From NCBI GenBank assembly GCA_010405405.1, contig MU004238.1, forward strand, positions 941,530 to 1,005,529: a stretch of 64,000 bases of DNA, written 5' to 3'. A program made the translations under genes and the position numbers. This document shows, in pieces, positions 36,196-43,449 of the stretch (positions are counted from its first letter, which is position 1; every line of letters begins with the position of its first letter). The stretch is from Microthyrium microscopicum. Lineage: Eukaryota. The notes below the pieces were generated by a model. The model did not search any database and was not told the origin of the DNA. It saw only the letters and a program-made list of their open reading frames with translations.

Positions 36196-37495
36196 TCACT
36201 CTCCAACTCTCGCCTCCTCACTGCCCACCTGAGCAGCCATCTTCTTCTTCAACCCCTTCAACTTCTCCATCCGCATCTCCCACCCGAGCCTCGCCTGCTC
36301 CTCCGCCGCCTTCGCCTTCTCCCACTTCATCAAACCCTCCCCCGCTTCCGCCGCAGCATCATGCAGCGCACCCGCCCCTTCCAACAGCGCCAGTAGGCGT
36401 CCGTCTTCCGGCAGGCGCGCTGACACTTTGTCCACGCGGAAGCGCAGGGCGTTCACCTCCAGTAGTGCTGCTTTTAACGCCTGCATGGCGGCGTCCTCCT
36501 TGCCGGACGCGGGCGCCCGGATGGTCGCAATGGGCATGCTGGCTGTGGCAGGGCCAGCAGAGGCCATGGTGGTGCCCTTGAAGGGCGAGGAGCGCGGGAT
36601 GCGCGAGGGCGTGTTGGTGGTGCTGGAAGGGGGGACGGCCTTCCGTGGTGATGGTTTGGGGGGTGGTGGTGGTGGGGAGGAGGAGGGGGAGCGTGGGCTC
36701 AGGGCGGCTTTGGACTTGCGCCGCAGCAAGTTCCGGAAACCGAATCTGCTTTTTGCGGCAGGGCGCGTTGTGGTGGTGGTGGGTGTTGGTAGTGGTGGCT
36801 GGCTAGGCCGGGCGATAGCCAAAAGGTCGTTTTTGGAAGGGGTGACGGCTTCCTTGGTGGTGAGGGCAATGCCCATCTTGGTGGTGGCGGTGGTGGAGAG
36901 GGGGAAGGGAGGAGCTGGCTTCTCCTCCGAGATGAAGGAGAATCCCTTGAAGGCTGAGGGAGGAGAAAAGCGGTTTGGTGCTGGCTTTGGTGGAGCCAGG
37001 AGGGAGCGACGGTTCATTGGGTCTGGTGATGTACCGCGCAAAGCAGGAGGAAGAGTGTCGACGTCTCTCTGTAATATATTAGAGGTCTGATGGAGAACAA
37101 CGTACTTGATGGGTGGTATCATTTCTGGTGGTTGAGATGAGAGTTTCTGGCCGAAGCGCCATTTGCTAAATATAAGTACCGATATAGCTTGCAATATCAA
37201 AGTCAACCCTCCAAATACGAGTCCAAATCCCCATCCAGCCCGCACCCATGCCATCATACGCCTCAATCGCAGTGCAAGTCACGATATCACGACATATCAA
37301 AGCATAAGGACTTACAGATGGACGACGACCAAGCGTCGGAGCAGTCATGTTGCCCGTGGGTCGTGGTAGTAGTGATTGGCCAGATTGGCCTCGTGAATTG
37401 AGTCGCGGGCGACGTATTGGGAGACCGGTATCCATTGGTCGCTGTTGCTGGCGACGAGGATCCGAAGGACGGCGCTGTTGCTTGTTGAAGTCCAT
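36196..37495 (-). CDS. Hypothetical Pro/Ser-rich protein with C-terminal coiled coil
   Basis: Long GC-rich ORF. A phase-0 intron 37069-37315 (GTAAGT…CTAAT…CAG) joins MDFNKQQ…RRPS to RDVDTLPP. Start codon uncertain. Confidence 0.55.
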
Positions 37496-39144
37496 TGCTT
37501 TACACACAAGAAGAAAGACTGGTGAGTTTTGTGTGGGAGAAGATGGTAGTGAAGCAAGCTTGGAAGAGGAAGTGAAGGTGAGATGGAGGAGAGGGGTTAG
37601 AGCCAAAACCACAGGCGAATATTCCATTGTGGGGTGTTGCTCTGGGGAGTCGCTAGGTGGAGGAGACATGATGATATTGAGGTATCCGGGAGTCACTGAG
37701 GAGTGGGAGGACGGGCAGGAGCTGTAGCAGTTGGCTGGAAATAGAAAGAACTCTCCCCAATAGAGAACTATAGCCTCGAGTAGTATGATATGAATATGAA
37801 TTGATATGTATTGTGGAAATCCAGTATGAGTGAGGACATTGGGAACCTGAGAGATGGTCATTGGAAATGAGATATGGGATCTGTCTGGTTTAAAGCAACA
37901 CAAGATACATTTTTTGGAGTTGGATCCATGGTATATAAGCCCAGTGATATTCAAACGGATAGGTGCCGAGATTGATGAGTACCCGTCTTGTGTACGACAG
38001 ATACATTTCCAGAAGGGATCCTAAGAAATGCAAAGAGGGTCAAGAAAGCCGCAAGCAGCCATGTAGCAGCCAATGGGCCGACGGTAGGTATCGAGATGTG
38101 ACCAAGGCTCAAGCATCGTCCCTAGCTTTTTAATAAGCATCGAATTCATGATGACACTTCCCAGCTCTTGAAGTTTGGCGATAAGATACACATTATCAAG
38201 TCTGCAACACCGCAACGTCAAGTTCCTAGATCTCGACAAGCACCGCATAAACCAGTGCAACCGCACCACCAAACGCGGTGGATGTTGACAGGATCGAGGA
38301 ACGCGTCGATGTTGACATTGCCTGATTACAACTCACGCGTTGCAGAATCGAGAAGCAGGCTCCTATGCTTCATTAGCTCTCGAACATGTGGACAGCAAAC
38401 ACATTGTACGATGGTACTTCAGCTCAATATATGAAAGGAAAATAACTTTTATGGATTGAAACTGGCCTATGAAAAGCCGAAAACTTACCTAAAGTCGAAA
38501 AACCTTAAGTTGAAAAGTCAGGTCGAGTAGTGTATCTAGGTAACACGCATGAATCCACGGCTAGGATCAAGCTAACATACACACCATATTCTGCCGTGAA
38601 GCCAAGCGTAAGAGACTGATGCCGACAATACGAAGCAATGGTACAAACACGGCCATGCAAACATAGCAGAACGAGCAGGCATGGATAACAGTGGTACGAA
38701 AAAGGTCAGTCGGACACAACGAAGCGCTGGAAATCAAGACGCAGTCAAGATATAGATATTGATGAGACAACCGCCGAAAAGGAACATACAAAAGCCACCC
38801 AAAATGGTGGCATGGGAAAGCAACAACATGCAATCAGCCTTTTGTAGACCACCAGTCAAACACACCACGCCTCGCTTGCCATGATTCCCGGCACAGAGAT
38901 CGAAAAAGTTATCAAAAAAGGTTATCAAAGGTAAAACAGCAACGCCACAGAAGAACAGAAAGTTGTGATAATTCGCTTTTTCTCGTATAAAACAATCCAG
39001 GCCCCGAAAGTTTGAAGAGGAACGGCATCATGCCCTTTCCGTCGTATGAAATCCTGCTGCCAGACTTGAGATGTGTAATTCCGTCCGACGTCATATAGCC
39101 TTTTTTTCCAGTAGGGTAGCTCGATACTGCGATCTGCCAGTCAA

Positions 39145-42074
39145 TCAAGCGTTAAAGACGCTTGTGAAACCGCGACTTTCAGCGTCTAGCCTATCCATTC
39201 GTGCCTGCGCGTCTGCAGCGTCGCGCTGGTTCATCTGGTCTACCGAGAGTGGAGTCAGAGGACTGGGATGGTCGGGCGGGAACATTCCCGGCAACGGGCC
39301 CAGTGGCTGCTCAGAGCCAGTTCCGCTAGCACCATTCGTTTGGAATGGGTTCGGTGACGTTGCAGTTGGCGAGGTATCGAATTCGTTCAGGCGGCCTTCA
39401 AGCGGGGTATGCATATGGGCATGGTAGGGACTATTGAAAAGAGGGTTTCGTTAGCAATTTGGTACGCTTGAAAAGTTTGGCTTCGAGCTGGTGCGGGGGA
39501 CGATGGTTAAGCAATAGCAGCAGATAGTAATGGTGATGGTGACGAAGCAGCCCCAGAATTTCAAGGCAGAGATTTCATAGCGAGCCACAAAACAATAAGC
39601 AGGACCAGATATCGTGCTAGGCGTACCAAGGCACACCTAAGCATGAGGACGTAGACGACGAAACCTCCGGCTGGACCACAGGATGACGGTCGAAAATTCG
39701 AGCAAGGCCAAAGTCGAGAAAAGCTCACACTGGGTTGATTACTCACCATCAAGCAAGGCAGCAAGACCAGGAGAAATACGATGAAGCCCAAACCCTCAAG
39801 TAAAATAGCATAATCAAGATGGAAAGTGGGAATAATGCATGGATAAATAAACTTTGATAAGTCGTCTTCCGGCAACGGCCAATGGATGATGCACAAGTGG
39901 GTATCCGCACACGAAAGAGCAGACCAACAGATGAGGCGGACTAAGCAATGCAGCAAGATATGAAAGACGTATCAGAGAGATAAGAGAGAGAGAGATGGAA
40001 ATAAAGTAGAGAACAGAAAATACCATGCAATAAAAATGAATCTTTTTCGAACCGAACAACCCCCATCGACTGTCAACAGAATAAGTCTACAAGTATGCAA
40101 CTTTGTTGGACAAATTCTGTTGAAAGAAGACTACATGAATAATGTAAAGCAAAGAGAGAAAACTAAATACAGAACAGCCCATTCCAGCATCGGGTATGAC
40201 ATGGAAATAATCCATTGGAGACATTCCTCACTAGCCTGCCTGATGATGAGCAACCGTAGCAATAAAAGCATTTCCGAAAGCAAGCCGAAAACAGTATTGT
40301 TCATCCTGTGAAATCCGAAACCGAGAGTCCTTTGGAAACCAGTGGCTTCTGGAGTGTCGTGCGATCCTTGTCCGATGGGTATTCTGGTTGTGGATGGGTA
40401 GAAATGAGCATAAGCCAAGACCAAGCATAAGGAACCGTCAAGGCATATATAACTCCGGTCCCCAAGATGGGACACAAATCGAGAGTGGGAAAACACAAGA
40501 ATGAGGGATAATTTTTGGGTCATAAGTAAGTGGGAGGCATGAAATCTTGGAAACATGTTGGAGGAAAAACTTTTGCAGGAAGGGTAAACGAAAAGCCCCA
40601 CAGGAGGACAATCTCATCGAGGGAAAGGCAGCCGTTCTCATCTGGCATGATGTGGTCGTATCGTGATTTGTAGTCATGCAGGTCTAAGAAATGATCGAAA
40701 GGTGGCCAGTGGGGAAGTCACTAAAGGGGGAGATCCTTACTACGCTAGATGTTAGTTATTGACCAAAAGTGAAATTGTGAGATCATCTTACCTTCATTGG
40801 GCCAAAATTGCCAAATGGATGTTGTGGTGGGATTCCCATGGACGGGTACATTGGTGGAGGAGGTGCTGGTCGATATGGAGTGCCAGCAGGACCAGAGTTG
40901 TTCTGGCTGCGGCCCCAGCTAAGACGAACACGAGAATTGCCGATAGGGTAGCCTTGCATCTGATTGATGGCCATCTCTGCGGCATGACGCTGGACAAACT
41001 GGACGAAGCCACAGCCCTTTCCAGGTGGAATCTTGACATAGGTAATTTCGCCAAATCCTTGGAAGAAAGATCGAAGCTCGTCCTCAGTGACGTATCCAGA
41101 AAGGCCGCCGACAAAGACAGTGGTGTTGTTAGGGTCGGTAAACTGGTTCATGGGTTGTGGGCTACCATAGAATCCCATTGGAGGAGCACCCATTTGCATG
41201 TAGTTCATGGGATTGGCACCGTGAGGCATGCCGCCCATAGCGCCTGCTCCCATGTGCTGTCCGCCCTTGTTCTTGGGGGTGGCCTGGGAGATACGCATAG
41301 GACGGTTGCCGCAGTAGACACCCTGCATTTCGCTCAAGGCACGTTGCTGATCGTTCTCATCGCTAAATCGAACGAATCCATAGCCGCGGCTGACGCCATT
41401 CATAGGATCGGTCATGATCTTGGCAGACTTGCAAGATCTGTACTTGCCTTGAAAGATATTCGCAAGAACCAGTTCATTGACTTCTGGGCCAAGATCGCCA
41501 ACAAAGATCGAGTACTCAGGACCTCGGTCATCACGGCTTCTATCAGCCAAACCGCCACCAGAGGCCCAGTTCAGCTTGAAGGTGCGCTGGGAGTTTGGCA
41601 TGGGCTGGCCATTGACGGCGAGGGCTTTGGCTGCAGCTTGTGGGCTGGTGAAGTCTACAAAGCAGTATCCAGCATTGCTACTAGGTATTCAGTCAGGTTG
41701 GCAGGGAACATGTACGAAGCATGACTTACCCAGTGAACTTGTCACGGATCATCTTGACGTTAACTGTCTCACCCATGCCATACCAGAGGCTTCGAATAAA
41801 GTTCTCATCGATCCAGGGTTCAAGTTCGCCCATCCTGAGATGGTCAGCTTATCCAATCGTACATTTCAAAGGACTTGACTTACCATAGTGTGGTCTTGGA
41901 GTCACCGCCTGCACCGTCTTGGCCAGGCATTCCCGCAGAGCCAGGTTGTTGGAATTGGCCTGCACCGTTGTCGGTAGGTGGCATTGGAGGTTGAGCACCA
42001 GGAGCGCCAGCAGCGGCGGCATTACCGTCCTCTGCTTGACCTGGCTGGAAGCCTTCGTAATTTTGAAAACTCAT
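39145..42074 (-). CDS. Triple-RRM RNA-binding protein, Nam8/Ngr1/Csx1 (TIA-1-related) family; short isoform stops at 40737-40739, long isoform at 39145
   Basis: RNP motifs TLWMGEL, AGYCFVDF, IFVGDL, RGYGFVRF, VFVGGL and KGCGFVQF. Introns about 41834-41882 and 41679-41728. Distal exon 39145-39430 is preceded by gCTAAC…TAG. Confidence 0.9.
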
Positions 42075-43449
42075 GTTTAGAGTTGATGTGGAATCGAAGT
42101 GAGTAGACTAGAGTAGTGGAGGAAATGATATCGTCGGACTGGAAGAATATCCGCAATCGCTGATTGATGTGGTGAGAGTACGCAGATGTACACGACAGTT
42201 GCAGGATACAAGTATTAATGCTAGCTATGTCAGTGAATGGTAGGAAAGTGATTGCTGAGCAAAAGTAAAAGTGGATGGAGTGTTGAGTAGGTAGCAGAGC
42301 TTGCAGTCAAGGGAGACAACGGAATATTAAATAAGGATGCCTAGATCAGCACTTACCGTTCTAGAATCACTCGTAACCACCTGACAGCAAACAACTAACT
42401 GACTCTTTGAAGAAAGAAGCCACGGACAGAAGGTAACCCGAATATTGAAAGACCAAGGAAGTCACAGCCAATAGGTACCCAGATTTCGCAGTCAAGGCAC
42501 TAATCAGAGGAACAGAACACAACAGTACGGGACACCGAACGCCGCGTAGGAGGGTCAAATCTAGTCTTGAAGACTGTGCGCGAGATTCTGTGGTCGAGAA
42601 GAGGACTAGGCAAGGTGAGAAAGGGTAGAGGGATGAAGGACTATCGACGAGCTGACCTGTGGTATGTGGTATTAGCGATCGCGTTTGTAAACCATAAATG
42701 AAAAATGTTCGCGACAAAGCAGTGACAGCAGCAGACGCAAAAACTGGACGCGCGAAGATCAAACGGTGGTAGTGGGTAGGAAGTTGGGGAGAAAGGTGGT
42801 TGCCAAGTGCACGGTTGGAGGTTAGAGTTTTGGGTGCAGCGCCGTACAGGGACCCAATGACCCTCGATGGATGCAGCTGTCCACTGAAGACGAGCGCAAT
42901 ACTCGACCAACTGCAAGTTCCCACAACAACAAGATCTCTCAAAGACTGAATCAATTGGTATGAGTCAAATTGAGACTCAATTGATGATGGATCCAGACAG
43001 TGAGGTATAGGCCCAATGCAATGCGCGCCTGAAGGCTGGGCGGGCAAGCACTGTGTTGGTGGTGGTGGCCTCCTTGACGAGCGCAAACGTGGCTCGGATG
43101 CAAGCGCGGCAAGCGCGATTGATGACGGACGGGAGGATGAGGAGCGACCCGAAGCCCAGGAAGATATCCTCAGGTCCAGCCAGATCATGCACACAGCGAC
43201 GTTCCAGGAAGCGCGGTAGGCGAGCCAACAGCCGGTGGGCTCCAGCGCAGGCGAGATGGAGATGATGCGGGGAGAGGAATGGGCAGACAGACGGAAGCAA
43301 TGAGGTATGGGTAGGTAGGGAGTGGAATAGGAACTTACCAAGCAGTTTTCAACTACTCCAGGAAGTTGGAAGCAAAGTTCTGAATCCAGGCGAAAAAGCA
43401 GCATGCAACACAAGCGTGGAAGAAAGCAGGAAAGCGGCGTTAAATTTAT

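Follow-up and report, generated by a model that had tools for sequence, protein, structure and literature searches.

Evidence for an expressed [D1,2] stwintron with short and long splice outcomes in a Nam8-type RNA-binding protein gene of Microthyrium microscopicum

Results

A nested intron at the 3′ end of a three-RRM gene

We analysed a stretch of 64,000 nucleotides (nt) from Microthyrium microscopicum (assembly GCA_010405405.1, contig MU004238.1, positions 941,530 to 1,005,529 of the forward strand), hereafter the window, whose minus strand carries, at 42074-39145, a gene for a protein with three RNA recognition motifs (RRMs). The last coding intron of this gene is very probably a genuine and expressed [D1,2] stwintron (spliceosomal twin intron), a nested arrangement in which an internal intron sits between the first and second nucleotides of the donor of an external intron, and it has a short and a long outcome. 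All coordinates are window positions, and a slash within a motif marks a splice boundary. The 3′ part of the gene consists of the following elements:

40793..41677, minus strand: coding exon 3, containing the end of RRM1, RRM2, RRM3 and a Pro-rich linker and running as far as the AA of the final codon that both forms share (Pfam RRM_1; 100% identity to the annotated protein P0001)
40792, minus strand: G1, base 3 of the Lys codon in the short form and base 1 of the external intron in the long form
40740..40791, minus strand: internal intron, 52 nt, with GTAAGA, ACTAAC (40756-40751) and GTAG (sequence; joint skipping 52 nt in contig record 2)
40737..40739, minus strand: TAA, the short-form stop and positions 2-4 of the regenerated donor G/TAAGG (sequence)
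39747..40739, minus strand: 993-nt alternative exon, serving as 3′ untranslated region (UTR) in the short form but lying within the external intron in the long form (contig record 2, both ends spliced)
39431..39746, minus strand: 316-nt intron with the proximal donor GTGAGT at 39746-39741 (joint 39430^39747, GT..AG; sequence)
39145..39430, minus strand: coding part of the terminal exon, with the T completing AAT (Asn), 94 codons and TGA (open reading frame; orthologous tails align end to end); 3′UTR in the short form

Exon 3 ends in ...CCA ATG AAG, the codons ATG AAG occupying 40797-40792. Removal of the 52-nt intron gives AAG TAA and a predicted protein of 394 amino acids (aa) ending in ..GPMK, and the same splice joins G40792 to TAAGGA, whereby a phase-2 donor, GTAAGG, is regenerated. 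The external intron that starts with this donor is 1310 nt long and has a canonical branch site and acceptor, with GCTAAC 20 nt before the acceptor CAATAG/T at 39431/39430; the AA/T join would yield ..GPMNPYHAHMH...SVFNA, a product of 488 aa in which PMN is followed by 94 residues. Splicing in one step from the visible phase-0 donor would continue out of frame from ..PMK for 10 codons to a stop (404 aa), and the proximal AG at 40745, if used, would give ..PMKRSKDLPL-stop. An earlier reading of the window by a model that saw only its letters (the sequence-only reading) had proposed the 52-nt internal intron, the ..GPMK stop, the regenerated phase-2 donor, the stop 10 codons after a single splice, and an external intron of unusual length, about 1310 nt. 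When recomputed on the window letters, all of its sequence statements and coordinates proved correct, and the external introns of relatives are indeed shorter, at ~450-580 nt. The 316-nt intron shares both the branch site (GCTAAC, 39455-39450) and the acceptor (CAATAG at 39431) with the external intron.

The layout G40792/GTAAGA..ACTAAC..GTAG/TAAGGA agrees with the [D1,2] consensus G/GU...AG/URWGY (PMC9024468; this and the other articles are cited from their accessible parts), except that position 6 of the regenerated donor is G and not Y. An [A2,3] stwintron requires a G after the last acceptor (PMC9024468). Since the terminal frame opens with T after the acceptor, that route is not available, and only the [D1,2] arrangement, with the internal intron removed first, offers canonical sites.

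Both splice outcomes are present in RNA contigs

RNA evidence came from assembled contigs of run X1, which is from the same organism, is 100% alike to the window and covers a 0.79 share of the stretch; all four of the four contig records used were at least 99% alike. X1 is not registered as RNA, and its nature was deduced solely from its contigs: these are spliced at six places with canonical boundaries, which identifies the run as complementary DNA (cDNA). Among the spliced sites are those of three more canonical introns of this gene.

The short-form joint, 40739^40792 in contig record 2, skips 52 nt with GT..AG borders on the minus strand and keeps G40792, whereas the long-form joint, 39430^40793, skips 1362 nt, lacks G40792 and reads GG..AG on the minus strand (CT..CC on the plus strand). 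An RNA with the internal intron removed thus exists, and so does a mature junction without G1 that looks like GG..AG, as is characteristic of a [D1,2] stwintron. The position of the long joint is unambiguous, with no base that fits both sides ('both' = 0), and contig record 1 begins exactly at 39430. While these two junctions had been predicted from the sequence, a third had not been foreseen: joint 39430^39747 skips 316 nt with GT..AG borders, and a single 1054-nt contig contains the 52-nt splice, the complete stretch 40739-39747 and the 316-nt splice. The short-form mRNA is a finished molecule, in which the stop at 40739-40737 is followed by the 993-nt exon and then by the terminal exon as 3′UTR. 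Its stop lies 990 nt upstream of the exon junction, so that the 3′UTR is both long and intron-bearing. The idea that the external intron is a plain intron consequently held for the long form, from which it is removed, but not for the short mRNA, in which 40739-39747 is kept as an exon.

Mean contig depth, a rough figure, reached 860 at the long junction, 1660 on the contig that holds both the short junction and the 993-nt exon, and 2009 over exons 1-3; going by these depths, neither isoform is rare. The sequence-only reading had named three outcomes as incompatible with its proposal (exclusive use of AG 40745, an exon at 39430 that is never reached, and a different intermediate exon), and none of them was seen among the listed X1 joints. 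These joints include neither any use of AG 40745, nor a one-step joint 40792^39430, nor an intermediate exon inside the long junction, with the proviso that contigs can drop rare variants. X1 is without cover at 39462-39715, and this stretch was used since one contig joins across it. A second run, X2, is from a relative; it covered 5 of 30 bins and contributed intron 1 only.

In addition, an RNA contig of 4869 nt starts at 39430, continues past 38700 and, by its size, would reach ~34560, running over minus-strand open reading frames at 36196-38020. It could represent overlapping or read-through neighbour transcripts, or an assembly merge.

The upstream part of the gene is spliced conventionally:

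42221..42356, minus strand: 5′UTR intron, 136 nt (joint 42220^42357, GT..AG, contig record 3)
41884..42074, minus strand: coding exon 1, with ATG at 42074-42072, ending in phase 2 (sequence; joint 41833^41883 with cut +1)
41835..41883, minus strand: intron 1, 49 nt (joint seen in runs X1 and X2)
41730..41834, minus strand: coding exon 2 (sequence and joints)
41678..41729, minus strand: intron 2, 52 nt, with a tandem TAGTAG acceptor (joint 41677^41730; distal AG used in the RNA contig)

The 5′UTR intron is spliced in the main contig, and its depth bin, though reduced, does not fall to zero, a hint of partial retention. At the tandem acceptor of intron 2 (TAGTAG, 41677-41681), the distal AG leads to ..FTGNAGY.. 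and the proximal AG would insert one extra Ser; with the distal choice the predicted 394-aa product is identical to P0001.

The gene encodes an RrmA/Csx1-type protein

The predicted short product matches letter for letter P0001, a 394-aa protein that NCBI names as a Microthyrium microscopicum RNA-binding domain protein. The annotated protein is the short form, which bears out the expectation that gene finders would miss the long one. Pfam RRM_1 was found in three stretches (E 1.5e-38), and the AlphaFold2 model of the orthologue P0071 shows three beta-alpha-beta-beta-alpha-beta units. The best solved relative is yeast Nam8, matched over residues 57-358 and all three RRMs (E 8.8e-73), and judged by E-values the protein is nearer to Nam8 than to Pub1 (1.6e-22) or TIA-1 (2.7e-21). 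Orthologues are 78-86% identical over exon 3, and those at 82-85% identity are annotated, for example, as 'mRNA binding post-transcriptional regulator (Csx1)' or 'RNA binding protein involved in regulation of arginine catabolism', the latter being the name of RrmA of Aspergillus nidulans. RrmA, Csx1, Nam8 and Ngr1 have three RRMs, as does the window protein. RrmA and Csx1 control mRNA stability (PMC4282371); NAM8 homologues occur in all but two of the fungi analysed, and NGR1 only in Saccharomycetaceae (PMC2766253). The label 'Nam8/TIA-1-like', given from the letters of the window, was therefore fair, and with Nam8 as the best solved relative and these orthologue names the protein would more exactly, and best, be called an RrmA/Csx1-type member of the Nam8/Ngr1 branch.

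The nested layout recurs across classes of fungi

We classified 80 loci from a scan of metagenome contigs according to their arrangement at this position:

G/GT (or GC)..49-83 nt..AG/T(A/G)A: 30/80 loci, 26 of them by rule and L006, L065, L068 and L069 by eye
The same layout but with AAA and no donor G: 2/80 loci (L005 and L047)
Stop right after a K or Q codon: 29/80 loci
Asn codon and continuous frame: 17/80 loci
Contig ending too early: 2/80 loci

The layout predicted for the window thus recurs in 30 of the 80 loci. The nearest named proteins of such loci are from Dothideomycetes, Eurotiomycetes and Lecanoromycetes:

L004: Cercospora, 96%
L018: Cenococcum, 100%
L027 and L073: Penicillium, 95% and 98%
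L036: Lecanora, 96%
L038: Pleopsidium, 96%

For L068 (GGG/GTAAGT..CAG/TAAGCA) the closest protein is P0076 (95%), the C-terminal region of which resembles Pseudogymnoascus proteins. The recurrence of the layout across class-level distances argues for selection. Some of the loci with a direct stop are cDNA-type contigs that represent the intermediate; the cDNA-type L060, for instance, is 100% identical to the genomic L057 once the internal intron of the latter is taken out. The genomic locus L063, of the same class, has a plain AA/GTAGTT donor without an internal intron and a span of 212 nt.

A separate downstream tail exon was present in 13 genomic loci. It begins with YAG/T CCN in phase 2 in 10 of the 10 inspected, the near-copies L048, L049 and L067 being left out, and this phase requires a donor after AA. 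In relatives with a tail exon the stwintron spans 501-633 nt including the internal intron, as compared with 1362 nt in the window. The AA/T junction itself is carried by the cDNA-type loci L001 and L015 of the Asn class, which have short tails. Also in this class, L058 is devoid of introns, and a group of 14 loci (L012-L014, L020, L022, L024, L031, L032, L043 and L051-L055) reads continuously from ..AAMNPNAHHMH.. to ..RFEADGR..YQQ-stop with no intron at the junction; L053 and L055, which are genomic and lie on long contigs, keep an upstream intron. In one lineage (L006, L009, L010 (genomic), L017 and L021) the internal intron is an in-frame CAG-rich stretch, which is retained in the cDNA-type contig L021 while its upstream introns are spliced; this lineage would have a third C-terminus, K-V-G-G-polyQ..-stop.

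The simplest history to be read from these loci would start with an old phase-2 intron whose donor, AA/GTAR, gave a K-stop if the intron was retained. An internal intron would later have entered between G1 and T2, before the classes split, and would have been lost secondarily several times.

The long form would carry the ancestral C-terminus of the family

The 120 best orthologues differ in how they end:

Ends exactly at K: 50/120
Reads K-V.. into a GT: 52/120
Ends at Q: 2/120
Tail ending ..RLEADxRGYDSVFAQ: 10/120
Other C-terminus: 6/120

Among the ten tail-bearing orthologues, P0071 (on a 2.4-kilobase (kb) contig) reads ..APM-N-PH... The other nine models (P0013, P0015, P0035, P0051, P0060, P0079, P0081, P0106 and P0108), mostly from lichen metagenome bins, show nine different invented junctions, as is expected if a GG..AG intron is beyond what gene finders can splice. 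A tail profile search revealed ..APL-N-PHAAHMH.. in Morchella sextelata, Tuber melanosporum and Tuber brumale, and altogether ten proteins, those of Morchella and Tuber included, have Asn in place of Lys at the junction (..AP[ML]-N-PH/Y..). A full HMMER search returned 55 cluster representatives with the tail, mostly short stand-alone open reading frames, which is what results when an exon is called on its own. A word-based search with residues 392-466 of P0071 gave 6 matches only; the alignment search and HMMER reached further.

In line with the proposal that the tail is conserved, alignments identify the window tail as homologous to the C-termini of orthologues; it is 52% identical to P0152 over its whole length, including a lineage-specific insert of the window type. 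The C-terminal motif is retained from Pezizomycetes to the window. Between L036 and L044 the tail exon shows 22 synonymous changes against 3 non-synonymous ones, and the ratio of non-synonymous to synonymous rates (dN/dS), 0.03, points to strong purifying selection on this exon in relatives. Judged by these comparisons, the tail is the ancestral C-terminus of the RrmA/Csx1 family. A search of the tail against the PDB, yeast Nam8 included, gave no significant match (best E 0.71). In the AlphaFold2 model of P0071 the confidence score (pLDDT) of the tail is below 50, except for a helix at 435-454 with a pLDDT of ~60, which is too weak to suggest a function.

Sequence content of the external intron

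The external intron had been described as pyrimidine-rich. Its C+T content is above that of the whole window strand (62% in 40739-39747 and 60% in 39746-39431, versus 50%), but the richness is modest. Past the regenerated donor, positions +7 to +30 are 70% pyrimidine in 31 sequences, versus 58-63% further on, which is a weak hint at a Nam8-like activation of weak 5′ splice sites by way of U-rich sequence behind them. The hexamer GGAGTT occurs 30-56 nt past the regenerated donor in 18 of the 31 sequences (17/29 non-redundant), for example in L004, L007, L026, L030 and L068; shuffles averaged 0.7 and never exceeded 6, an excess that is overstated since the sequences are related. In many Dothideomycete-like loci GGAGTT lies within a longer conserved block, ..GCCTTGAGTGAG..GCACTTTAGCGGGAGTTGGTC... 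A lone GGAGTT ~284 nt downstream in the window is within chance, and the conserved 3′UTR element of other Dothideomycetes had no window match at up to 4 mismatches. Over 38500-42600, Rfam at E<=1 gave two chance-level matches, both outside the external intron, and hence no known intronic RNA. In a repeat and self-similarity search the 1309-nt intron stretch showed only an (AG)11 run; nowhere else in the window was it repeated, and none of the 80 loci matched it. Given this lack of other copies and of repeats beyond (AG)11, a transposon origin of the extra intron length found no support.

Weighing the stwintron against other explanations

Several observations weigh against the interpretation of this intron as a [D1,2] stwintron with two meaningful outcomes. 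The RNA evidence consists of contigs of one run from one study, and the order of splicing, the phasing of distant exons and reliable isoform ratios are beyond what contigs can tell; likewise, the 394-aa and 488-aa proteins are products predicted from RNA contigs. In a group of 16 Cladosporium-like loci from the direct-stop class the protein ends in ..APRQ (CAG TAA AGC), with neither an internal intron nor a recognisable tail. Four of these loci lie on contigs of 10-214 kb, so that the genome itself lacks the internal intron there. (The group comprises L023, L025, L026, L028, L029, L035, L037, L039-L042, L050, L059, L061, L062 and L072; L026 matches the Cladosporium inversicolor protein P0028 at 100% identity, and the group retains the conserved downstream block.) The genomic loci L005 and L047, which keep the internal-intron layout, and the cDNA-type loci L070 and L074, which read AAA TAA, have AAA in place of AAG, which leaves no donor G to regenerate, and a tail exon was not found downstream of L005 and L047. 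The tail profile also had no match in several [D1,2] loci for which 1.5 kb or more of sequence lay downstream. Eurotiales-like cDNA ends in ..PMNY-stop (L015, P0056); it forms the AA/T junction though its 'tail' is just NY-stop, which favours a role at the mRNA level. Going by such loci, the long form is not indispensable everywhere. The window tail is divergent, with 33-48% identity to other tails, and GGAGTT is missing from the first 130 nt past the regenerated donor of the window.

On this basis it could be argued that the short ..PMK protein is the sole product of importance and that the second splice amounts to noise or to a relic that is tolerated, the tail being in decay in this lineage. 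The annotated protein is the short form; among the 120 best orthologues, the protein stops at K in 50 and runs on into the intron as K-V.. in 52; the cDNA-type contigs of relatives are mostly short-form; the donor G or the tail is missing in some lineages; and the window tail is not only divergent but, by proxy, predicted to be mostly disordered. A relic, however, sits poorly with a long junction at a depth of 860 against 1660 for the short one, which even as rough figures do not describe a rare variant, with a dN/dS of 0.03 in the tail exon of relatives, or with a C-terminal motif kept from Pezizomycetes to the window. Furthermore, the window-type insert is common to another species at 52% identity, and the acceptor phase was kept in 10/10 checked loci. 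We therefore regard this explanation as improbable.

Still less probable is the formation of the long junction in one step from a non-canonical GG donor, AA/GGTAAG. The final junction by itself is indeed GG..AG, and the order of events is invisible in contigs. Yet the intermediate lacking only the 52-nt intron is abundant, the arrangement G/GT..AG/TAAG, which is needed solely for two steps, is present in 30/80 loci, and L063, which has no internal intron, shows a plain AA/GTAG.. donor. Moreover, GG donors are not known to be used by the U2 spliceosome. That the junctions are assembly artefacts, or stem from contaminating or other DNA, is scarcely credible: X1 was only guessed to be RNA and the junction contig extends just 30 nt on a side, but six canonical-boundary joints in 100%-identical contigs show cDNA, k-mers across the junction reach a depth of 860, and the same K-to-N junction occurs in independent sequences of other fungi.

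Discussion

The intermediate and both outcomes of the stwintron exist as RNA. In the contigs, removal of the 52-nt intron at 40791-40740 joins AAG to TAAGGA and thereby creates a stop codon and the donor G/TAAGG at once. In the second step of the mechanism that we propose, the regenerated GTAAGG, with its mismatch at +6, would compete with the consensus donor GTGAGT at 39746 for the acceptor at 39431. Choice of the regenerated donor would lead to PMN and the 94-residue tail in a predicted protein of 488 aa, and choice of the downstream GTGAGT would keep the 993-nt exon and lead to the predicted short protein of 394 aa. The likely role of such a switch would be to set the ratio between the full-length protein and a truncated protein made from an mRNA with a long 3′UTR.

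Spliced 3′UTR introns and long 3′UTRs are triggers of nonsense-mediated mRNA decay (NMD) in Neurospora (PMC10578600). As the short-form mRNA has these features, it may be NMD-sensitive, and the switch may also dose the gene. A preprint on Histoplasma describes CSX1 isoforms with long 3′ trailers that are more abundant in hyphae, its accessible text mentioning no twin intron (10.64898/2026.08.26.747414). Autoregulation by the protein itself is possible, by analogy and from the weak hints in the sequence. A more far-reaching proposal would be that of an ancient recursive-splicing switch, in place before Dothideomycetes, Eurotiomycetes, Lecanoromycetes and probably Leotiomycetes split, kept for the choice between a full-length and a truncated, NMD-prone form, and set by the protein itself through binding to the pyrimidine tract and to the conserved GGAGTT soon after the regenerated donor. 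We consider this conceivable but doubtful; if it were true, it would be the first stwintron with a demonstrated regulatory function.

The [D1,2] stwintrons that Flipphi, Fekete and co-workers described in Pezizomycotina likewise have an internal U2 intron between G1 and U2 and are removed by two consecutive canonical splices, and their known mis-splice, a one-step excision that leaves the G and shifts the frame by +1, would have the same effect here (PMC9024468, PMC12403724). In contrast to these cases, the intermediate of the present stwintron is a finished, abundant mRNA whose stop codon the regenerated donor supplies, and on our model the same acceptor is contested by another donor further downstream. 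Those [D1,2] stwintrons that resemble one another in sequence are as a rule specific to one species (PMC12403724), whereas the layout described here is common to loci nearest to three classes. The [D5,6] stwintron of a reticulon-like gene, for which exon skipping is described in Aspergillus niger (PMC6616335, PMC9024468), is of another type and in another gene, and the accessible parts of PMC6616335 do not mention an isoform ended by a regenerated donor.

A closer parallel in some respects is the recursive splicing (RS) of metazoan RS-exons (PMC6224609), where the exon is joined first, the recursive 5′ splice site then competes with the exon's own donor, and inclusion brings an early stop, as does the 993-nt exon here. 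The outcomes of the regenerated and of the downstream donor are both present in the window gene (39430^40793 and 39430^39747). However, the donor of an RS-exon lies wholly downstream of the acceptor (AG/GTAAGT), whereas here G40792 of the upstream exon is removed, and the setting is a fungus with a first intron of 52 nt instead of a very long intron. The element works like recursive splicing, but not of the classical kind, as one G of the upstream exon is consumed.

Within the literature searched, which did not extend to the two earliest stwintron papers and some supplements, we found no prior description of this stwintron. The accessible parts of the stwintron papers use 'RNA-binding protein' only generically, the text supplement of PMC9024468, as far as accessible, contains no RNA-binding terms, and the accessible text of the RrmA paper (PMC4282371) makes no mention of introns, splicing or isoforms. 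To that extent, the stwintron of the RrmA/Csx1 gene appears to be undescribed so far. What would be new is a [D1,2] stwintron that combines an intermediate which is itself a mature mRNA, a stop codon formed by the regenerated donor, a presumably competing second donor and class-level conservation.

So far stwintrons have chiefly been regarded as oddities of intron gain and loss. In the present gene, abundant mRNAs represent the intermediate as well as the final product, their frames end differently, and the stop codon of one isoform literally is the regenerated splice donor. As 102 of the 120 best orthologues stop at K or enter the intron, and 9 of the 10 tail models are misjoined, the ancestral C-terminus of the family is absent from most annotations. 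With rrmA of A. nidulans and its counterparts in other Eurotiales, the gene offers a tractable system in which to examine whether recursive-type splicing and NMD through a 3′UTR intron serve fungi to dose an RNA-binding protein.

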